NCBI GenBank assembly: GCA_025935675.1
Contig: JAICUU010000001.1
Coordinates: 3,935 to 67,934 of the forward strand
DNA from: Burkholderiales bacterium
GTDB taxonomy: Bacteria; Pseudomonadota; Gammaproteobacteria; Burkholderiales; Casimicrobiaceae
DNA: 64,000 nt
Direction: 5' to 3'
A program made the position numbers and the translations under genes. Below are positions 2,119 to 55,717 of the stretch, in pieces. How positions within the stretch are numbered: the first letter of the stretch is position 1; each line of letters begins with the position of its first letter. The notes under the pieces are model-generated. The model worked only from the letters and a program-made list of their open reading frames with translations, ran no database searches and had not been told where the DNA came from.

Positions 2119-2760
2119 TCATTCGGCGTCAGGCTGGCGGGCGGGTGCCGCATCGGTGAACGCAGGCACCGTCTGGCACGCCGCATCGATGCGCGCGAGC
2201 GTCGGCCAGCGCGCCATGTCGAGCCTGGCGCGATGCGCGTTGGCCACTTGCGGCACGACGAAGCAGTCGGCGAGCGTGGGCGCATCGCCGTGGCAGAAGC
2301 GGCCGGTGCGCGCGTCACCGGCGAGGTCGCGCTCGAGCGCGTCGAAGCCGAGCGCGATCCAGTGCGCGTACCACGTCGCGCGCGCGGCGGCGTCCGCCGC
2401 GAACGTCGCCTCGAGGTGCTGCAGCACGCGCAAGTTGTCGATCGGATGGATGTCGGCGGCGATCGCGAGCGCGATCCCGCGCACGCGGGCGCGATCCTCG
2501 GGCGTCGCGGGCAAAAGCGGCGGCGCCGGATGCGTCTCGTCGAGGTACTCGATGATCGCGAGCGACTGCGTGATGACGCGCCCGTCGTCGAGCTCGAGCG
2601 CCGGCACGAGCCCGTGCGGATTGCGCGCGCGATAGTCGGCGTCGTGCTGCATGCCGCGCACGAGATGCACGTGCGCGCGCGACACGGCGATGCCCTTCAG
2701 GTTGAGCGCGATGCGCACGCGGTAGGCGGCGGACGAGCGGAAATAGTCGTAGAGCTTCAT
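2119..2760 (-). CDS. maiA: maleylacetoacetate/maleylpyruvate isomerase (zeta-class GST)
   Basis: 213 aa. The N-terminus MKLYDYFRSSAAYRVRIALNLKGI is the zeta-GST/MaiA signature, and the gene is adjacent to the FAH-family gene. Confidence 0.85.
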   Translation of the reverse strand: MKLYDYFRSSAAYRVRIALNLKGIAVSRAHVHLVRGMQHDADYRARNPHGLVPALELDDGRVITQSLAIIEYLDETHPAPPLLPATPEDRARVRGIALAIAADIHPIDNLRVLQHLEATFAADAAARATWYAHWIALGFDALERDLAGDARTGRFCHGDAPTLADCFVVPQVANAHRARLDMARWPTLARIDAACQTVPAFTDAAPARQPDAE

Positions 2761-2778
2761 GGCGTCGATCCCGCTCGA

Positions 2779-3975
2779 TCAGAACGCCGAGATGCCGGTC
2801 TGCGCGCGGCCGAGGATCAGCGCGTGGATGTCGTGCGTGCCCTCGTACGTGTTGACCGTCTCGAGGTTGAGCAGGTGGCGGATCACGTGGAACTCGTCGA
2901 CGATGCCGTTGCCACCATGCATGTCGCGCGCGGCGCGCGCGATGTCGAGCGCCTTGCCACAGGAGTTGCGCTTGACGATCGACGTGATCTCGGGCGCGGC
3001 GAGGCCCTTGTCCTTGAGCCGGCCGAGGCGCAGGCAGCCCTGCAGGCCGAGCGTGATCTCGGTCTGCATGTCGGCGAGCTTGCGCTGCACGAGCTGGTTG
3101 GCCGCGAGCGGCCGGCCGAACTGCCTGCGGTCGAGCGTGTACTGGCGCGCCGCATGCCAGCACGACTCGGCGGCGCCGAGCGCGCCCCAGGCGATGCCGT
3201 AACGCGCGCTGTTGAGGCAGCCCATCGGACCCTTGAGGCCCTTCACGTTCGGCAGCAGGTGCGCCGCCGGCACGAACACGTCGTCCATCACGATCTCGCC
3301 GGTGATCGACGTGCGCAGGCTGAACTTGCCCTCGATTTTCGGCGCCGACAGCCCTGCCATGCCCTTCTCGAGGACGAAGCCGCGCACGACGCCGTCGTCG
3401 GTCTTCGCCCACACCACGAACACGTCGGCGATCGGCGCGTTGGAGATCCACGTCTTCGCGCCCTGCAGCCGGAAGCCGCCGTCGGCGGCCCGTGCGCGCG
3501 TCACCATCGAGCCGGGGTCGGAGCCGTGGTCGGGCTCGGTCAGGCCGAAGCAGCCGATCCATTCGCCGCTGGCGAGCTTCGGCAGGTACTTGCGCCGCTG
3601 CGCCTCGTCGCCGTAGGTGAAGATCGGGAACATCACGAGCGAGCTCTGCACGCTCATCATCGAGCGGTAGCCCGAGTCGACGCGCTCGACCTCGCGCGCG
3701 ATGAGCCCGTAGCAGACGTAGTTGAGCTCGGCGCCGCCGTAGTCGGCGGGGATCGTCGCGCCGAGGAGCCCGAGCGCGCCCATCTCGCGGAAGATCGCGG
3801 GGTCGCTCTTCTCGTGGCGGAAGGCCTCGATCACGCGCGGCGCGAGCTTGTCCTGCGCATAGGCGCGCGCGGTGTCGCGCACCATCCGCTCGTCGGACGC
3901 GAGCTCCTCTTCGAGAAGCAGCGGATCGTCCCAGTGGAAGACGGGTTTGGCGGCGGCGCGGTCGGGGGCATTCAT
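2779..3975 (-). CDS. gcdH: glutaryl-CoA dehydrogenase
   Basis: 398 aa acyl-CoA dehydrogenase. The N-terminal [43 protein letters not shown]...[16 protein letters not shown] stretch matches GcdH. Confidence 0.9.
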
Positions 3976-26373: not shown

Positions 26374-27474
<1,101 letters not shown>

Positions 27475-32051: not shown

Positions 32052-33563
32052 ATGGACCAGATCCTTCACGTCGCGCAGCTCGGCCTCGGCGTGCTCGTCG
32101 CGCTGATCCTGTTCGGCGCGGTCGTCGTGATGTTCGTGCGCGACGTCACGCAGAAGCAGCACACGGTGCTGCGCAATTTCCCGGTCATCGGCCGCTTCCG
32201 CTACTGGTTCGAGGAGCTCGGCGAATATTTCCGCCAGTACTTCTTCGCCGGCGACCGCGACGAGATGCCGTTCAACCGCGCCACGCGCGGCTGGGTGTAC
32301 CGGCTCGCCAAGAACGAGGGCGGCATCATCGGCTTCGGCTCGACGTACGACCTGCACGCGCCGGGCGCGCTGATCTTCGTCAACGCGCCGTTCCCGGTGC
32401 TCGAGTCCGACCGTCTGCCGACGCCGCCGCTCGCGATCGGCGAAGGCTACTGCCGTACGCCGTTCGTCGCGCAGTCGGTCGTCAACATCAGCGGCATGAG
32501 CTTCGGTGCCATCTCCGAGCCCGCGGTGCGCGCGCTGTCGCGCGGCGCGCACGTCGCCGGCTGCTGGATGGACACCGGCGAAGGCGGCCTGTCGCCCTTC
32601 CACCTCGAGGGCGGCTGCGACGTCATCATGCAGATCGGCACCGCCAAGTACGGCGTGCGCGACGCCGATGGCCACCTCGACGTCAAGCGTCTCGCCGAGC
32701 TCGCGGCGATGGACAGCGTGCGCGCGTTCGAGGTGAAGCTGTCGCAAGGCGCCAAGCCGGGCAAGGGCGGCGTGCTGCCCGGCAGCAAGGTGACGCCGCT
32801 CATCGCAGGGATCCGCGGCATTCCGCCCGGCAAGGACTCGATCAGTCCCAACCGCCATCCCGACATCCCCGACATGAATGCGCTGCTCGACACCGTGATG
32901 AAGATCCGCGACATCACGGGCAAGCCGGTCGGCGTCAAGACGGCGATCGGCGGGCGCTGGTTCGCCGACGAGCTCGCCGAGCGCGTGCTCGCGCGCGGGC
33001 TCGACTGCGCGCCGGACTTCCTCGTGATCGACGGCGGCGAAGGCGGCAGCGGCGCGGCGCCGCAGGCCCTCGCCGATCACGTCGGGCTGTCGATCGACGA
33101 GGCGCTGCCACGCGTCGCCGACTCGCTGATCGCCGCGGGATTGAAGCCGCGCATCCGCCTCGTCGCGTCCGGCAAGCTCGTGACCTCCGCGCGCGCCGCA
33201 TGGGCGCTGTGCTGCGGCGCCGACTTCGTCAACACCGCGCGCGGCTTCATGTTCGCGCTGGGCTGCATCCAGGCGCTGCGTTGCCATACCAACACCTGCC
33301 CGACCGGCGTCACGACGCATAACCCCCGGCTGCAGCGCGGGCTCGTCGTGGAGGACAAGGCGACGCGCGTCGCGCAGTACGCGATGAACATGAACAAGGA
33401 GATCGACATGATCGCGCACAGCTGCGGCGTGCGGCAGGCGCGCGAGCTCGAGCGGCGACACGTCCGCCTGGTGCAGCCGACCGGAGGGTCGATCGCGCTC
33501 GACGTCCTCTACCCGGCGCCGCCGCTGCGCACCGAAGCGGGCGGCACCCTCGCCCGCGCGTAG
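32052..33563 (+). CDS. FMN-binding glutamate synthase family protein
   Basis: 503 aa with an N-terminal TM helix and the GltS FMN-domain motif KLSQGAKPGKGGVLPG. Confidence 0.85.
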   Translation: MDQILHVAQLGLGVLVALILFGAVVVMFVRDVTQKQHTVLRNFPVIGRFRYWFEELGEYFRQYFFAGDRDEMPFNRATRGWVYRLAKNEGGIIGFGSTYDLHAPGALIFVNAPFPVLESDRLPTPPLAIGEGYCRTPFVAQSVVNISGMSFGAISEPAVRALSRGAHVAGCWMDTGEGGLSPFHLEGGCDVIMQIGTAKYGVRDADGHLDVKRLAELAAMDSVRAFEVKLSQGAKPGKGGVLPGSKVTPLIAGIRGIPPGKDSISPNRHPDIPDMNALLDTVMKIRDITGKPVGVKTAIGGRWFADELAERVLARGLDCAPDFLVIDGGEGGSGAAPQALADHVGLSIDEALPRVADSLIAAGLKPRIRLVASGKLVTSARAAWALCCGADFVNTARGFMFALGCIQALRCHTNTCPTGVTTHNPRLQRGLVVEDKATRVAQYAMNMNKEIDMIAHSCGVRQARELERRHVRLVQPTGGSIALDVLYPAPPLRTEAGGTLARA

Positions 33564-35878: not shown

Positions 35879-37252
35879 CTATCCGGCGTCGCGGGACGGC
35901 GCATCGACGTCGCCGCCCTCGTCAGGTTCGTCGAGCGCCGGGGTCGCGCCAACGCCCAGCAGCCGCTCCGCCTCGGCCGCGGGCAGCGCCTCGACGTTGC
36001 GGAGCTTGCGCTCGATCGTGCGGCTCTTGCGGCTCGCGTCCTCGAGCGTCTCGCCGACCTTGTCGAGCTTCTCCTTCGTTTTCGCGAGGAGGTCGCCGAA
36101 CTTGCCGAAGTCGGTCTTGACGGCGCCGAGCGTGCGCCACACTTCGGCCGACTGCTTCTCGATCGCCAGCGTACGAAAGCCGATCTGCAGGCTGTTGAGG
36201 AGCGCCGCCAGCGTCGTCGGCCCGGCGAGCACGACGCGGTGCTCGCGCTGCAGGCCGTCGGCGAGCCCCGCGCGCGACACCGCCTCGGCGTAGAGACCCT
36301 CGGTCGGCACGAACAGGATCGCGAAGTCGGTCGTGTGCGGCGGCTCGACGTACGACTCGCGGATCGCGCGCGCCTGCGACTTGAAGAACTGGTCGAGCTC
36401 GCGGCGGCTGGTCTCGACACCGGCGGCGTCGGCGCGCTCCTGCGCGTCCTGCAGGCGCTGCCAGGCGTCGAGCGGGAACTTCGAGTCGATCGGCAGCCAG
36501 CACGGCGTGCCGTCGTCGCCACGACCGGGCAGCGCGATCGCGAACTCGACGCGCTCGCCGCGCCCGGGCCGCGTCGCCACGTTGGTCGCGAACTGCGCGG
36601 GCGTCAGAAGCTCTGCGAGCAGCGCGCCGAGCTGCACCTCGCCCCAGCCGCCGCGCATCTTGACGTTCGACATCACGCGCTTGAGATCGCCGACGCCGAC
36701 GGCGAGCTGCTGCATCTCGCCGAGACCCTTGTGCACCTGCTCGAGGCGCTCCGACACCAGCGAGAACGAGTCGCCCAGGCGCTTTTCCAGCGTCGCCTGC
36801 AGCTTCTCGTCGACGGTGGCGCGCATTTGCTCGAGCTTGGCGGTGTTGTCGTTGCGCAGCACCTCGAGCTTTTGCTCGACGGCCGCGGTCAGCGTGCCGA
36901 GGCGCTCGCCGAACTGCGCGAGCTCGCCGCGCTGCGCCTCGCGCGCATCCGCCAGCGCGCGCTGCGTGCCCGCCTGGAACTGCGCGAGGCGCTCGCCGAC
37001 CTCGCGCCGCAGGTTCGCGGCGGTATCGGCCTGCTCGTTGCGCGCCATGGCGAGGTCCCCGCGCATGTCGCGCTCGTGCTCGGCGGCGCCCTTTGCGGCG
37101 GCGTCGAGGCGCGCCATCAGCGCGGCCGCATCGATGGCGCCGCGCTCGCGATCACGCGCGAGCACCGCGAGGCGCGACAGCGCGAGCGCGAGGAGCGCGA
37201 CACAGCCGACCGCCGCGAGCGCGCATACGCCGAGCAGCACCGACTCGATCAT
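35879..37252 (-). CDS. rmuC: DNA recombination protein RmuC
   Basis: 457 aa with an N-terminal TM helix, a long coiled coil, and a C-terminal RmuC nuclease-like domain (FAILFVPTEGLYAEAV). Confidence 0.85.
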   Translation of the reverse strand: MIESVLLGVCALAAVGCVALLALALSRLAVLARDRERGAIDAAALMARLDAAAKGAAEHERDMRGDLAMARNEQADTAANLRREVGERLAQFQAGTQRALADAREAQRGELAQFGERLGTLTAAVEQKLEVLRNDNTAKLEQMRATVDEKLQATLEKRLGDSFSLVSERLEQVHKGLGEMQQLAVGVGDLKRVMSNVKMRGGWGEVQLGALLAELLTPAQFATNVATRPGRGERVEFAIALPGRGDDGTPCWLPIDSKFPLDAWQRLQDAQERADAAGVETSRRELDQFFKSQARAIRESYVEPPHTTDFAILFVPTEGLYAEAVSRAGLADGLQREHRVVLAGPTTLAALLNSLQIGFRTLAIEKQSAEVWRTLGAVKTDFGKFGDLLAKTKEKLDKVGETLEDASRKSRTIERKLRNVEALPAAEAERLLGVGATPALDEPDEGGDVDAPSRDAG

Positions 37253-37301
37253 GGCCGCGAGTCTAGCAAAATCGCGCGCGCGCTCGGCTGCGCGCGGGTC
37301 G

Positions 37302-48795: not shown

Positions 48796-51636
<2,841 letters not shown>

Positions 51637-51672
51637 GCTCCGTTGCAGTTTTGGTGAACGTAATTACTTGAA

Positions 51673-51678
51673 ATTATA
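51673..51678 (-). promoter_or_regulatory. candidate -10 box of valS
   Basis: A perfect TATAAT on the minus strand in a locally AT-rich patch, 36 nt upstream of the valS ATG. No convincing -35. Confidence 0.3.
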
Positions 51679-51706
51679 GCGGATTGTGCAGTCGCTCGAC
51701 GACGCA

Positions 51707-52585
51707 TCATGCACACGCCCCTGCTTGGACCCGCGGCGCAAGCATCGCGCGCCGAGGCGTCGCAACGCGCCGGCCGATCGCGCGTGCCACGGCTACGAGC
51801 GTCGCCATCAGCGCCGCGAACGCCTCCGGCGTCAACGCCTGGTCGGCGTCGCACCACGCTTCCGCAGGGCACGGATGCACCTCGATGAGCAGGCCATCGG
51901 CGCCGGCGGCGACCGCCGCGGCGGCGAGTGCCGGCACCATCCACGCCTTGCCGCCCGCGTGCGACGGATCGACGATCACCGGCAGGTGCGTTTCTTTCTT
52001 CATCACCGCGACCGCGGTGACGTCGAGCACGTTGCGGTACGCGGTCTCGAACGTGCGGATGCCGCGCTCGCACAGGATGATCCGCGTGTTGCCGCCGGCG
52101 GCGATGTACTCGGCCGCCATCAGCCACTCGGCGAGGGTCGCGCTCATCCCGCGCTTCAGCACCACCGGCACGTCCACGCGGCCGAGCTCCTTCAGGAGCT
52201 CGAAGTTCTGCATGTTGCGCGTGCCGACCTGGATCGCGTCGACGCCCATCGCGAGGAACGTGTCCAGCATCCGCACGTCCATCAGCTCGGTGACGACCGG
52301 CAGCGCGTGGCGCGACGCCGATTCCTTCAGCATCGCAAGCCCCTCGACGCCTTTGCCCTGGAACGCGTACGGCGAGGTGCGCGGCTTGAACGCGCCGCCG
52401 CGCATCAGCGTCGCGCCCGCCGCGGCGACGGCGTCGGCGGCGGCCGCCATCTGCGGATTCGTCTCGACCGAGCACGGGCCCGCAATGACGGGAATCGCCT
52501 CGCCGCCGAACGCCGCGTCGCCGACGCGCACGACGCTCGCCGACGGATGCCGCTCGCGCGATACGAGCTTGCAATCGTTGTTCAT
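51707..52585 (-). CDS. 3-deoxy-7-phosphoheptulonate (DAHP) synthase, type I-beta
   Basis: Within track ORF 51707..52672; I prefer ATG 52585 with GAGGAG 7 nt upstream. Motifs are VIAGPCSVE, GGAFKPRTSPYAFQG, VGTRNMQNFELLKELG, LKRG, CERGIRTF and VDPSHAGG. Confidence 0.85.
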   Translation of the reverse strand: MNNDCKLVSRERHPSASVVRVGDAAFGGEAIPVIAGPCSVETNPQMAAAADAVAAAGATLMRGGAFKPRTSPYAFQGKGVEGLAMLKESASRHALPVVTELMDVRMLDTFLAMGVDAIQVGTRNMQNFELLKELGRVDVPVVLKRGMSATLAEWLMAAEYIAAGGNTRIILCERGIRTFETAYRNVLDVTAVAVMKKETHLPVIVDPSHAGGKAWMVPALAAAAVAAGADGLLIEVHPCPAEAWCDADQALTPEAFAALMATLVAVARAIGRRVATPRRAMLAPRVQAGACA

Positions 52586-52634
52586 GTCGGTGCTCCTCAT
52601 TGGCCTCGAATCGGTGCGGCGCTCCGAAAGCCGC

Positions 52635-52669
52635 AAAAAAATCGGGCGGTCCTTGCGGAGCCGCCCGAT
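52635..52669 (-). terminator. strong intrinsic terminator in the DAHP synthase leader (attenuator terminator)
   Basis: The minus strand reads ATCGGGCGG-CTCCGCAAGGA-CCGCCCGAT followed by TTTTTT (seven U including the stem end). It lies 49 nt upstream of the DAHP synthase ATG. Confidence 0.7.
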
Positions 52670-52701
52670 CATCGCGTGTGTGTCGAATGCCGATGCGCGC
52701 G

Positions 52702-52818
52702 CTAGGCTCCGTTACCGGATTGGCCGTAGACGTACCAATAGACGAACGCCACGGTCGCGAGCGCTCCGCGCGCGAGGCCTGCGGCGAGGTCGTAACGGGC
52801 GGTGGAGGTGGCGTGCAT
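52702..52818 (-). CDS. candidate aromatic-rich leader peptide (38 codons)
   Basis: Not in the track (under 60 aa). Manual translation gives MHATSTARYDLAAGLARGALATVAFVYWYVYGQSGNGA. Codons 25-31 are TTC GTC TAT TGG TAC GTC TAC (52726-52746). The SD is weak (GAGA). Confidence 0.5.
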   Translation of the reverse strand: MHATSTARYDLAAGLARGALATVAFVYWYVYGQSGNGA

Positions 52819-52850
52819 GGGGTCAGTCTCGCATCATCGGGCGCGGCCCG

Positions 52851-53771
52851 TCAATGGAGGCCCGTGCGCAGGCGCTCGAGCTCGCGCTCGATCGCCTCGG
52901 CGACGAAGCTGCGGAGGAGCTCGCCGACGTGCTGGTTGATCGTCGCGACGAGCTCGGCGCTCGCGCGATCGACGATCGGCTGCAGGCGCTCGCCGAGCTG
53001 CTCGCGCAGGCCGGTGTCGGTGAACATGTCGATCCGCTGCAGCACCTGCATCCGCACTTCGTCGATCAGCTCGTCGGTGGCCTTGGCGACGCTCGCCGCG
53101 TCCGCCTCCGCGGGCGCGGGCGCGCCGCGACCCGGCTGCTCGGCAACGGCGGGACTGTGCGGGATCGCGGCGATCGATTTGGGCGCGGGGCCGAGCACGC
53201 TGTCGTCGCCGCGCATCGCCTCGTCGTTCCAGATCGACGGCTCGCCTTCCTCGGCGGCGGCGATCAGCGCCGCGTCGATCTCGGCGATCGCATCGGTGAG
53301 CACGGGCACGTCGGCAAACGCGTGCTGCTCGGGCGCCGGCGCGGGGCCCGGCCACGCGGCACCCGCCGGCGCGTCGTGCGCGGGCGCAGGAGGCGGCGCC
53401 AGCGTCGGCTCGACCCGCGCTTGCGGCACGTCTCGATCCGGCGCCGCGTAGACCCGCGGGCCGGGGCCCGGCACGTCACGCTGAATGGGGACGTCGGCAC
53501 GCTCGTGCGTCGACGGCGTGCGCATGTCCGGCGCCGGTGCCGTGCCCGCGGGCGATGATGCCGGCGCGGCGGCCGTGTCGGCGCGCGGGGGGTCGGCCGG
53601 CGCCGGCACCGGATCGCGCAGCACCGGGAAATCGCCGGGCGCCGCCGCGGGCCTGCGCAATATCGACGGGCCCATCGTTCGCGGTCCCATCGCCGGCGAG
53701 AGCGTCTCGCGACCGCGATTGCGGCGCATCAGCGCATCGGCCTGTTCGAGAAGCTCTCGCGCAGATGGCAT
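52851..53771 (-). CDS. hypothetical Pro/Ala-rich protein with conserved-looking helical termini
   Basis: 306 aa. The ATG is 1 nt after the holC stop. The N-terminus is MPSARELLEQADALMRRNR, followed by about 180 aa of a low-complexity Pro/Ala region, then a C-terminal helical domain ELIDEVRMQVLQRIDMFTDTGLREQLGERLQPIVDRASAELVATINQHVGELLRSFVAEAIERELERLR. Confidence 0.6.
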   Translation of the reverse strand: MPSARELLEQADALMRRNRGRETLSPAMGPRTMGPSILRRPAAAPGDFPVLRDPVPAPADPPRADTAAAPASSPAGTAPAPDMRTPSTHERADVPIQRDVPGPGPRVYAAPDRDVPQARVEPTLAPPPAPAHDAPAGAAWPGPAPAPEQHAFADVPVLTDAIAEIDAALIAAAEEGEPSIWNDEAMRGDDSVLGPAPKSIAAIPHSPAVAEQPGRGAPAPAEADAASVAKATDELIDEVRMQVLQRIDMFTDTGLREQLGERLQPIVDRASAELVATINQHVGELLRSFVAEAIERELERLRTGLH

Positions 53772-53772
53772 G

Positions 53773-54201
53773 TCAGTCTCCCTGCCCCGCCAGGTTGTGC
53801 GTCCGCAACGCGTAGCCGCGCTCGCGGTAGAAACGATAGCGCTCGCGACCGGCCTCGGTCGACGCCGCGTCCGTGCCGACGATCTCCGCCAGACGCTCGA
53901 AGCGGCTGAAGAACGGCGGCGGCTCCGCGGCGAGGTTGATCAGCACGGCGAGCGGCCCTTCGTGCTCGCGCGCGTCGTCGACGATCACCGGCGTGTCGGC
54001 TGCCTGCAGGCTCGCGAGCCGGCAATGCGGCACGAACGACAGCGCCGGCTGCATCCACAGCATCCGATCGAGCGCATCGGTCGATTCGGCGTCGGCGGTC
54101 AGCACGCGCGCCGAGCCGTGCTGCGCGAGCGCCTTGTGCACGATCCTGCGCGCGACGTCGAGCGGCGACGCAACGTGCGTGTAGAAATCGATCTCGGTCA
54201 T
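53773..54201 (-). CDS. holC: DNA polymerase III subunit chi
   Basis: 142 aa from ATG 54201 within track ORF 53773..54552. MTEIDFYTHVASPLDVARRIVHKALAQHGSARVLTAD...LDRMLW is typical of HolC, and it lies downstream of pepA as in many proteobacteria. Confidence 0.85.
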   Translation of the reverse strand: MTEIDFYTHVASPLDVARRIVHKALAQHGSARVLTADAESTDALDRMLWMQPALSFVPHCRLASLQAADTPVIVDDAREHEGPLAVLINLAAEPPPFFSRFERLAEIVGTDAASTEAGRERYRFYRERGYALRTHNLAGQGD

Positions 54202-54214
54202 CGCGTCCGCGGCG

Positions 54215-55717
54215 TCAGGATGCGACCGGCTCGCCGTGACCGAGCAGCCAGCGCGTGAGGAGCGGCACGGGGCGGCCCGTCGCGCCCTTCTCCTTGCCTT
54301 CCTTGTACGCGATGCCGGCGATGTCGAGGTGGGCCCAATCGTACTTGCGCGTGAAGCGCGAGAGGAACATCGCCGCGGTGATGCTGCCGCCGGCGCGCCC
54401 GGCGACGTTGGCGACGTCGGCGAAATTGCTCGCGAGGCCCTCGGCGTAGTCGTCCCACAGCGGCAACTGCCAGCCGCGATCGTAGGCGTCGTCGCCCGCC
54501 TGAAGCAGTGCGCGCGCCAGCGTGTCGCTGTTGCTGAAGACGCCGCAGGCAATGTGGCCGAGCGCGATGACCATCGCGCCGGTCAAGGTCGCCACGTCGA
54601 CGACCGCCTCGGGCTCGAAGCGCTCGGCGTAGGTGAGCGCGTCGGCGAGGATCAGCCGCCCCTCGGCGTCGGTGTTCAGCACCTCGATCGTCTGGCCCGA
54701 CATGCTGGTGACGACGTCGCCGGGCTTGGTCGCGCGCCCCGACGGCATGTTCTCGCAGGTGGGCACCAGCACGACGAGGTTGATCGGCGCGTTGATCTCG
54801 GCGATCGCGCGCATCGTGCCGAGCACCGTCGCGGCGCCGCACATGTCGTACTTCATGTGGTCCATGTCGAGCGCCGGCTTGAGCGAGATGCCGCCGGTGT
54901 CGAAGGTGATGCCCTTGCCGACCAGCACGAACGGCTTGGCCTTGCGCGGCGAGTTCTGGTATTCGAGCACGAGGAAGCGCGGCGGCTCGTCGCTGCCGCG
55001 CGTGACCGACAGGAACGAGCCCATGCCGAGCGCCTCGATCTCGGCGCGCTCGAGCGCCTGCACCTTCACCGCCGGGAAATCCTCGCCGAGCTTCTGCGCC
55101 TCGGCGGCGAGGAACGACGGCGTGCAGACGTTGGCGGGCGTGTTGCCGAGGTCGCGCGCGAAGTCCATCCCGTGCGCGATCGCGAGGCCCTGCGCCGCGG
55201 CGCGCTCGCCGTCCGCCAAGTCGGAGCGCTGCGGCACCGACAGCGTGAGCTTGCGCAACGGCCGGCGCACCTCGGTGGGCTCGCTCTTCATCCGCTCGTA
55301 GCGGTAGACGGCGTCCATCGCCACGACGACGGCGTGCTCGATCCGCCACGCCACCTCGCGGCGCTTGACCTTCTCCTCGGTGAGGTAGATGACCGCCTCG
55401 TACGAGCCGGTCTCGTTGAGGAGCTTCACCGCGGCGCGGATCGCCGCGCGGAACTCCTTGTCGCGGAAGTCGCGCTCCTTGCCGAGCCCGACCAGCAGCA
55501 CGCGGTCGGCCAGCGTGCCGCGCACGTTGTGCAGGAGGAGCGTGGCGCCGAGCTTCCCTTCCATGTCGCCGCGGCGGATGATCTCGCTGACGTAGCCGTT
55601 GGAGGCGCGGTCGATCAGCTCGGCCGAGAGTGACAGCTTGCGGTTGTCGAACACGCCGACGACGACGCAGGCGCTGCGCTGCTTCTCGGGGCTGCCGCTT
55701 TTTATGGTAAATTCCAT
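54215..55717 (-). CDS. pepA: leucyl aminopeptidase
   Basis: 500 aa with VGKGITFDTGGISLKP and NTDAEGRLILADAL motifs. Confidence 0.95.
   Translation of the reverse strand: MEFTIKSGSPEKQRSACVVVGVFDNRKLSLSAELIDRASNGYVSEIIRRGDMEGKLGATLLLHNVRGTLADRVLLVGLGKERDFRDKEFRAAIRAAVKLLNETGSYEAVIYLTEEKVKRREVAWRIEHAVVVAMDAVYRYERMKSEPTEVRRPLRKLTLSVPQRSDLADGERAAAQGLAIAHGMDFARDLGNTPANVCTPSFLAAEAQKLGEDFPAVKVQALERAEIEALGMGSFLSVTRGSDEPPRFLVLEYQNSPRKAKPFVLVGKGITFDTGGISLKPALDMDHMKYDMCGAATVLGTMRAIAEINAPINLVVLVPTCENMPSGRATKPGDVVTSMSGQTIEVLNTDAEGRLILADALTYAERFEPEAVVDVATLTGAMVIALGHIACGVFSNSDTLARALLQAGDDAYDRGWQLPLWDDYAEGLASNFADVANVAGRAGGSITAAMFLSRFTRKYDWAHLDIAGIAYKEGKEKGATGRPVPLLTRWLLGHGEPVAS

Follow-up and report, generated by a model that had tools for sequence, protein, structure and literature searches.

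DAHP synthase (DAHP being the 7-phosphate of 3-deoxy-D-arabino-heptulosonate) sets the carbon flow into the shikimate pathway, a step which in textbooks is controlled through allosteric inhibition and by repressor proteins. Attenuation at the same step is documented in Corynebacterium glutamicum (PMC11802643). There, in the accounts given in PMC11802643 and PMC4046766, a Phe-Tyr-Phe leader, aroR, precedes the DAHP synthase (aroF) operon, and stalling in the leader raises transcription under Phe limitation. The system was first noted in PMC4046766, and according to PMC11802643 the response which Neshat et al. 2014 reported is to Phe and not to Tyr. In Escherichia coli the pheL-pheA, trpL-trpEDCBA and pheM-pheST systems are leader-peptide attenuators (PMC11802643), and a table in PMC2659441 points to an attenuator of aroF which senses Tyr-tRNA. 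In mycobacteria, leaderless short open reading frames (ORFs) rich in cysteine codons, the polycysteine ORFs, are presented as cysteine-responsive attenuators (bioRxiv 10.1101/834739). For the type I-beta DAHP synthase of Thermotoga maritima, the binding of Phe or Tyr falls to an N-terminal ferredoxin-like domain of the enzyme, by which the active site is gated (PMC5526877). In this study we compare with these systems the gap upstream of a type I-beta DAHP synthase gene in 64,000 nucleotides (nt) of DNA from a Burkholderiales bacterium of the Casimicrobiaceae (assembly GCA_025935675.1, contig JAICUU010000001.1, positions 3,935 to 67,934; this whole stretch is henceforth the window), and propose that a ribosome-mediated transcription attenuator very probably controls the gene.

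The initial annotation of this gap had read it as attenuation of the trpL/pheL type and had pointed to the Corynebacterium aroR-aroF precedent; the precedent is real (PMC11802643, PMC4046766), and the reading is supported by conservation, mutually exclusive folds and a dedicated promoter, none of the contrary findings checked for having been encountered. We class the element as a leader-peptide attenuator because four defining features which can be tested in sequence are present: an ORF containing codons for the end products, a terminator without an intervening promoter, an exclusive antiterminator and a spacing compatible with the ribosome.

Leader, terminator and conservation of the module

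The gap comprises 265 nt on the minus strand, between an ORF of 306 amino acids (aa; 52851-53771) and the ATG of the DAHP synthase gene (52585), in a window of 69% GC content. In the direction of transcription its features are as follows.

52849..52854, minus strand: -35-like hexamer TTGACG, a putative promoter element which overlaps the 306-aa ORF at its TGA stop codon
52825..52833, minus strand: extended -10 box TGC-GAGACT, 6 nt before the leader ATG
52702..52818, minus strand: leader ORF, 38 codons followed by a stop codon, MHATSTARYDLAAGLARGALATVAFVYWYVYGQSGNGA, from the sequence and from orthologous small ORFs
52726..52746, minus strand: regulatory cluster TTC GTC TAT TGG TAC GTC TAC (F-V-Y-W-Y-V-Y), one of the three densest places
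52691..52711, minus strand: region 2, the predicted 5' strand of the antiterminator, CGGAGCC-UAG-CGCGCGCAUCG, comprising the last leader codons, the stop and 11 nt beyond
52656..52674, minus strand: region 3, the predicted 3' strand of the antiterminator, which also makes up the terminator's 5' arm together with the flank preceding it, CGAUGAUCGGGCGGCUCCG, from folding and duplex energies
52635..52670, minus strand: intrinsic terminator GAUCGGGCGGC.UCC-GCAA-GGACCGCCCGAU followed by U7, -23.2 kcal/mol, kept in all orthologs
52593-52598, minus strand: GAGGAG, the Shine-Dalgarno sequence belonging to the DAHP synthase gene, evident in the sequence itself
51707-52585, minus strand: the regulated gene, DAHP synthase, 292 aa (Pfam PF00793; NCBIfam PRK08673 and TIGR01361)

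The leader ORF and its F-V-Y-W-Y-V-Y run (52746-52726) lie where they were first annotated, and five of the seven consecutive codons do specify Phe, Tyr or Trp. Among the ~128,000 seven-codon windows in the six frames of the whole window, at least five aromatic codons in seven occur at only three places, and for this reason we regard the run as rarer than chance rather than as a chance feature. The other two places (~26761-26784, minus strand; 32226-32246, plus strand) were rejected as leaders, both being inside long ORFs. The statement that AT-rich aromatic codons are rare in the host DNA also holds, TTT and TAT being nearly absent from four window genes taken for comparison (TTT/TTC 3/64, TAT/TAC 2/31), while 27 leaders use them freely (31/34 and 32/42, respectively). 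A copy of 8 nt of the terminator 3' arm, ACCGCCCG, is likewise present in leader codons 6-8 (52796-52803, minus strand), as had been remarked. When the untranslated window leader is folded to its energy minimum, the neighbouring CCGUUAC is joined to a GUAACGG lying immediately before region 2. The sequence CCGCCCG occurs also in the related locus L001; a counterpart was not seen in the other loci.

The terminator, its U-run and the GAGGAG at 52598-52593 agree equally with their first description. The arms AUCGGGCGG (52669-52661) and CCGCCCGAU (52649-52641) enclose an 11-nt loop and are followed by a run of seven U residues ending at 52635; the hairpin begins 32 nt past the leader stop codon, and the U-run is separated by 49 nt from the synthase ATG. 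The argument that no space is left for a promoter downstream of the terminator can be extended to all the loci compared, in which the gap between terminator and ATG is 21-58 nt, and a simple scan of 51500-54000 for promoters and terminators found nothing at all, and hence no promoter between the terminator and the synthase ATG. Since the promoter and terminator scanner considers loops of 3-8 nt and ungapped stems only, a hairpin with an 11-nt loop or a bulge escapes it, and the missing terminator call is therefore not evidence against the terminator. A search for GGGCGGC-N3-14-GCCGCCC gave no match in the window, and the hairpin is thus not a repeated element.

The comparison of loci covered the contigs of three close homologs and 80 loci from species-representative genomes. 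In 29 loci (the window, L001, L005-L011, L016, L017, L020, L023-L027, L029-L031, L038, L040, L041, L047, L061, L067, L070, L079 and L081) the same module precedes a type I-beta DAHP synthase gene and comprises the -10 box, the small ORF, the aromatic cluster, the pairing tail and the hairpin with its U-run. Conservation of the hairpin was first indicated by the over-extended N-terminus of one homolog (MIGRLRKDRPIFLR), which is the translated terminator. The carriers with a family label are Casimicrobiaceae, many are unclassified betaproteobacterial or Burkholderiales metagenome-assembled genomes (MAGs), and a single MAG is labelled Aromatoleum. The 29 elements served to build a covariance model which, if matches of the palindromic hairpin to itself on the reverse strand are set aside, hit only the carrier sites and a degenerate copy in L032 in 508 kb, and found no second copy in the window.

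What is kept in the 28 further loci is the ORF with its aromatic cluster and the terminator, and not the rest of the peptide. The ortholog leaders range from 23 to 45 codons and vary in N-terminal sequence as well as in length; each carries a cluster of 3-7 F/Y/W codons, kept as a residue class (Y, then F, then W by frequency) in all orthologs while the flanking peptide changes. Of the 540 codons which form the last 20 positions of the 27 tabulated leaders, 26% specify F, Y or W (71 Y, 55 F and 16 W), compared with 3.3% in the N-terminal parts. The window leader ends in AFVYWYVYGQSGNGA, and example orthologs end in TTWYVGYFYFTDFSEGRARA, AAWWAFAYFYSTQAKGRTRP, RYGYVYTYGFYFGMTAEGRSHR and GVYFYGYVYPCQSRRVARA. 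A C-terminal EGRA(R/H) tail is common to most relatives and differs in the window (GQSGNGA) and in L001 (GQSADGA). The small ORF was annotated by the JGI gene callers (38 aa) in L001 and L003; the peptide has no match to a Pfam or NCBIfam family.

The module keeps its place when the upstream neighbour does not. In several loci a further gene stands between the counterpart of the 306-aa ORF and the leader, among them L009 with a divergent RidA-like gene and L008 with an MFS transporter gene, and in these loci the promoter, leader and terminator are still beside the synthase gene. Judged from gene order, the module belongs to the synthase gene and not to the upstream operon; the terminator, having its own conserved promoter and staying beside the synthase, is not merely the end of a pepA-holC operon, a possibility which the initial annotation had allowed for. 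Outside the carriers, in Gallionellaceae, Nitrosomonadales and gammaproteobacterial loci, the leader is absent and the synthase gene directly follows a hisC-like aminotransferase gene or pheA. Loci without a leader of their own, in which the synthase gene is within an aromatic operon, include L012-L015, L018-L022, L033-L037 and others. In Gallionellaceae and Nitrosomonadales loci, a run of U residues which precedes the synthase ATG by 41 nt was considered as a terminator and rejected, as it is coding sequence (K-F-L) of the hisC-like gene.

The promoter assigned to the module is itself conserved. A motif TG(C/A)-[T/G]A(G/C/T)(A/G)CT lies 6-8 nt from the leader ATG or GTG, without a Shine-Dalgarno sequence, in 27/27 tabulated loci, and the same box in L024 and L026 brings the total to 29; in many loci a TTGnnn element lies upstream of it, at a spacing of ~16-19 nt as counted by eye in some of them. 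Because the extended -10 box is at such a distance, the transcription start is predicted to be at, or next to, the A of the leader AUG (52818), and the leader ORF is probably translated from a leaderless mRNA. Elsewhere in the window the same extended -10 arrangement without a Shine-Dalgarno sequence, TGCTAGACT-cgcggcc-ATG (N7 spacing), is found at 37250-37270 on the minus strand, at the start of an RmuC-family ORF of 457 aa (35879-37252, minus strand). As the only other match to the arrangement in the window, this ORF is a candidate for a second leaderless gene, and its case fits the notion that the extended -10 motif would be a promoter yielding leaderless mRNAs in this host.

Antiterminator, ribosome position and competing explanations

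When the 3' arm of the terminator is withheld, the minimum-energy fold of the window leader joins 52691-52711 to 52674-52656 in an antiterminator of 16 bp (CGGAGCC-UA-GC-G-CG-CG-CAUCG with CGAUG-AU-CG-G-GC-GGCUCCG), with -28.1 kcal/mol for the truncated window RNA. The two pairings which had been proposed by eye, CGGAGCC (52711-52705) with GGCUCCG (52662-52656) and CAUCG with CGAUG, both fall within this predicted structure. Under the same treatment the end of the leader ORF pairs with the terminator 5' arm in 27/27 loci, such that a mutually exclusive antiterminator, the alternative RNA structure which the initial annotation proposed to look for, is predicted in every one of them. Two variants can be distinguished: GGGCCGC (codons E-G-R) with GCGGCCC in the majority of loci, and CGGAGCC with GGCUCCG in the window and L001. 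In the majority loci a variable inner helix joins the surroundings of the stop codon to the base and the 5' flank of the arm.

In the window the duplex of tail and arm has an energy of -27.9 kcal/mol against -18.5 kcal/mol for dinucleotide shuffles (p = 0.012), and across loci the duplexes are stronger than those with dinucleotide-shuffled tails by a mean z of -2.0, with p <= 0.05 in 15/27 loci. Each variant moreover prefers its own arm: the window tail reaches -27.9 kcal/mol with its own arm as opposed to -14.6 to -19.2 kcal/mol with the arms of other loci, and the L016 tail -29.0 kcal/mol with its own arm as opposed to -20.6 kcal/mol with that of the window. Because the tail peptide changes (EGRAR to GNGA) while the complementarity stays, the constraint would appear to act on the RNA and not on the peptide. 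The terminator, for its part, has an energy of ~-20 to -28 kcal/mol across loci, with 97.5% of cells paired in 27 sequences and compensatory changes at two basal pairs, and the full untranslated leader at equilibrium favours it as the ground state in 26/27 loci.

The distances between codons and RNA elements are also regular. From the start of the last aromatic codon to region 2 the median distance is 17 nt, a value shared exactly by 13/25 loci; the first aromatic codon begins ~38 nt before region 2. From the end of region 2 to the stop codon there are 9 nt in most loci and 0 nt in the window and L001. As the footprint of a ribosome extends ~12-15 nt to each side of its decoding centre, these distances fit a model in which stalling on any aromatic codon would leave region 2 free and arrival at the stop codon would mask it, as in the classical logic of attenuation. 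Directly 5' of region 2, within the 26 nt preceding it, there is a small hairpin in ~20/27 loci, varying in sequence (for example UCGGCA..UGCCGA, GGGAG..CUCCC and CGGA..UCCG; loci L008, L016, L020, L027, L067, L079, L081 and others) and weak in the window; it may serve as a pause signal or in stacking.

We envisage that transcription would start from the dedicated extended -10 promoter, either on the leader AUG or no more than two nucleotides away from it, and that a ribosome, presumably initiating without a leader, would translate the 38 codons, of which codons 25-31 include one Phe, three Tyr and one Trp. With charged aromatic tRNAs plentiful, the ribosome would reach the UAG and cover the CGGAGCC...CAUCG segment which abuts and spans the stop codon; with this segment covered, the GAUCGGGCGG...CCGCCCGAU-U7 hairpin would form and the polymerase would terminate, leaving a leader RNA of ~184 nt and no synthase mRNA. 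Conversely, were Tyr-, Phe- or Trp-tRNA scarce, the ribosome would stall in the aromatic cluster, 17-35 nt upstream of region 2, which would then be free to form 16 bp with the terminator's 5' arm and the flank preceding it, blocking the terminator and permitting read-through to the synthase 49 nt downstream. The amino acids sensed would, with high probability, be Tyr, Phe and, less strongly, Trp. What sequence and computation show are the parts with their conservation, the mutually exclusive folds and the spacing, while the start of transcription, the stalling and the response to supply are inferred.

A different account of the same RNA accepts the terminator/antiterminator switch and supposes that it is set by a protein, a small-molecule-binding fold or uncharged tRNA (T-box), the aromatic codons being secondary. 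In its favour, conservation is stronger in the switch elements than at any one codon of the leader, and the small hairpin 5' of region 2 recurs among loci. We nonetheless consider it very unlikely: an Rfam cmscan of 51500-54000 at E <= 10 returned no relevant family and just two unrelated weak matches (BjrC68 and AS-traI), the spacer between stop codon and terminator is variable, A/C-rich and unstructured and holds nothing of the size of an aptamer or a T-box, and the spacings of 17 nt and 9 nt, which are measured from codons, match the dimensions of the ribosome footprint.

Alternatively, the small ORF might encode a functional aromatic-rich micropeptide, membrane-bound or regulatory, with the hairpin marking the end of the transcript for this peptide and any influence on the synthase being incidental. 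The stretch LAAGLARGALATVAFVYWYVY of the window leader is indeed moderately hydrophobic, and the EGRA(R/H) tail is shared by most relatives at the level of the peptide. Yet length (23-45 aa) and N-terminus vary with only the F/Y/W class kept, the window and L001 have altered the tail peptide while retaining RNA complementarity to an equally altered arm, protein families offer no match, and the ORF is always directly upstream of the synthase gene with no space for a second promoter, all of which leaves this explanation highly improbable. Least probable of all, and scarcely credible to us, is that the hairpin is a plain terminator of a pepA-holC-306aa operon and the small ORF a product of chance, the synthase owing its expression to leaky read-through or to a promoter that escaped recognition. 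In favour of this account, the genes which precede the hairpin in the window form a cluster running in its direction, L032 has a similar hairpin behind a Fur-like gene and no leader ORF, and long spurious ORFs are common in the window DNA. Against it, the whole set of ORF, aromatic cluster, -10 box and hairpin is kept together in 29 loci, intact beside the synthase even with a divergent gene (L009) or a transporter gene (L008) upstream, with spacing kept to the nucleotide and with an aromatic run whose like occurs at three places only in the six frames of the window.

Several observations do weigh against the ribosome-mediated attenuator. Support from covariation is thin, since the core of the terminator is invariant, with two compensatory pairs, and the outer helix of the antiterminator, 91.5% paired, is nearly invariant, again with two compensatory pairs. 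The RNAalifold consensus shows the terminator alone and no antiterminator, and for this reason the latter was tested as a named structure and by folding each locus. No conserved region 1, that is, an anti-antiterminator partner for region 2, was found across the 27 loci; in ground-state folds region 2 pairs with upstream segments which differ from locus to locus, and with the aromatic zone in 10/27. The fold of the whole 265 nt is no better than that of shuffled sequences (z = -0.93), a value of little information because global stability is uninformative in DNA of 69% GC. As to the promoter, GAGACT, the -10 box of the window, matches less well than the TAGACT of most relatives, and leaderless initiation is uncommon in Proteobacteria. 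The leader, through its ORF or its promoter, has been lost or degraded in three loci of the carrier clade (L032, L052 and L057) and is hence dispensable there, and the organism is known from metagenomes only. Among the degraded loci, L032 (~2190-2285) keeps the hairpin after the Fur-like gene and has no leader ORF, and in L052 (~2200-2290) the hairpin is degenerate and lacks a U-run.

The synthase and its surroundings

The assignment of the window synthase to type I-beta is clear, the scores for PRK08673 (407 bits) and TIGR01361 (354 bits) being well above those for KDO8P synthase in NCBIfam. At 292 aa it lacks the N-terminal ferredoxin-like domain PF18152, which is present in nearly all of its close homologs, these being ~350 aa long; it begins with MNNDCKLVSRERH..., whereas the relatives carry a ferredoxin-like domain of ~64 residues (MIIVMQ...VKPYRLVAREWH). 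The 5' untranslated region (UTR) and the start region of its gene resemble, by eye, those of L001, which suggests that the domain was lost by an in-frame internal deletion. This account is based on comparison of the proteins and on reading of the 5' UTR, the MAFFT alignment of the window with L001 being unreliable across the missing domain, where it misplaces the terminator. The same short form is found in a metagenomic protein, P0001, 97% identical to the window synthase. A different short N-terminus without the domain, with the attenuator kept, occurs in L024 (~2460-3320, a Burkholderiales MAG), and in L026 (~2300-2500) a frameshift, probably an assembly error rather than the mark of a pseudogene, interrupts the ferredoxin-like domain. 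In most carriers control would accordingly appear to be layered, allosteric regulation being combined with attenuation, and in the lineage of the window the attenuator would be the sole recognisable control element left at the synthase locus.

The genes which flank the element and the synthase are the following.

54215-55717, minus strand: pepA
53773-54552, minus strand: ORF containing the Pfam match to holC
52851-53771, minus strand: the 306-aa ORF, without a Pfam or NCBIfam match
48796-51636, minus strand: valS

The initial annotation had taken pepA-holC as the operon immediately upstream; the cluster is present, but the 306-aa ORF separates holC from the leader. The C-terminal part of this ORF (~60 residues, ...AEAIERELERLR...) is kept in all 32 related loci, every carrier locus included. 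Within it, at 52862-52935 on the minus strand, lies the match to BjrC68, a Bradyrhizobiaceae small RNA family in Rfam, with 22.6 bits against a gathering score of 39, which is most likely a chance likeness of GC-rich hairpins.

Comparison with known systems

The element is real and conserved, apparently undescribed, and of a mechanistic kind that is familiar. Literature searches, of incomplete coverage, found no description of a leader for a betaproteobacterial or a type I-beta DAHP synthase, and the element matches none of the Rfam leader families (Phe, Trp, His, Leu, Thr). Taken as a whole, the carriers may form a family of leaderless-ORF attenuators which, from an extended -10 promoter and by joint sensing of Tyr, Phe and Trp, gate the entry step of the pathway on the type I-beta enzyme in an uncultivated betaproteobacterial clade, and provide the sole recognisable control at the domain-less window locus; we put this composite proposal forward tentatively, its chances falling a little short of even. 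If true, no ribosome-mediated attenuator with a leaderless ORF would, to our knowledge, have been described in Proteobacteria before it. The regular spacing (17 nt, 9 nt) and the apparent leaderless start would make it a clean natural test case for models of attenuation by ribosome footprint. On the practical side, it could supply a compact aromatic-responsive part for high-GC hosts, and the covariance model is usable for annotating metagenome-assembled Burkholderiales genomes.

Like the E. coli leaders pheL, trpL and pheM, the element has a short ORF containing codons for an end product and an intrinsic terminator with which a predicted antiterminator competes, and the position of the ribosome would likewise be the sensor. 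It differs from them in that they sense one amino acid each and act on terminal branches or on a synthetase, whereas here three amino acids are represented, which one leader would integrate, and the target is the common first step. The E. coli ORFs are, furthermore, led by a Shine-Dalgarno sequence and have a defined 1:2 pairing, whereas the ORF here is apparently leaderless and a conserved 1:2 partner was not found. In the leaderless start the likeness is to the polycysteine ORFs of mycobacteria, which, as far as their published outline goes, also place a leaderless short ORF at the 5' end and tie biosynthetic genes to amino-acid supply through its codon content. Those ORFs sense cysteine and belong to Actinobacteria, in which leaderless mRNAs are common; the leaderless status of the present ORF is read from the -10-to-AUG spacing alone.

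The comparison with the T. maritima-type synthase (PDB 1RZM, 3PG9) concerns the enzyme, which is of the same family as that of the window, and its ligands Phe and Tyr are the two commonest amino acids in the leader peptides described here. Its control is post-translational; most carrier loci have the domain responsible and the window enzyme has lost it. Control at the level of RNA and allosteric control would thus be layered yet separable, two lineages having lost the allosteric domain and kept the attenuator.

The nearest functional precedent is aroR-aroF of C. glutamicum, with which the element has in common both the regulatory logic and the pathway step. That system belongs to an actinobacterium and has three regulatory codons, whereas the present one is betaproteobacterial, precedes a type I-beta synthase and has 3-7 mixed Tyr/Phe/Trp codons. 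The C. glutamicum aroF enzyme is of type I-alpha. Set apart in this way by phylum and by enzyme class, the two are implausible as products of common descent, and their resemblance, being functional, points to an independent origin. As a second, independent and conserved case, on another enzyme class and in another phylum, the element would imply that leader-peptide attenuation has been recruited to the entry of the aromatic pathway more than once.

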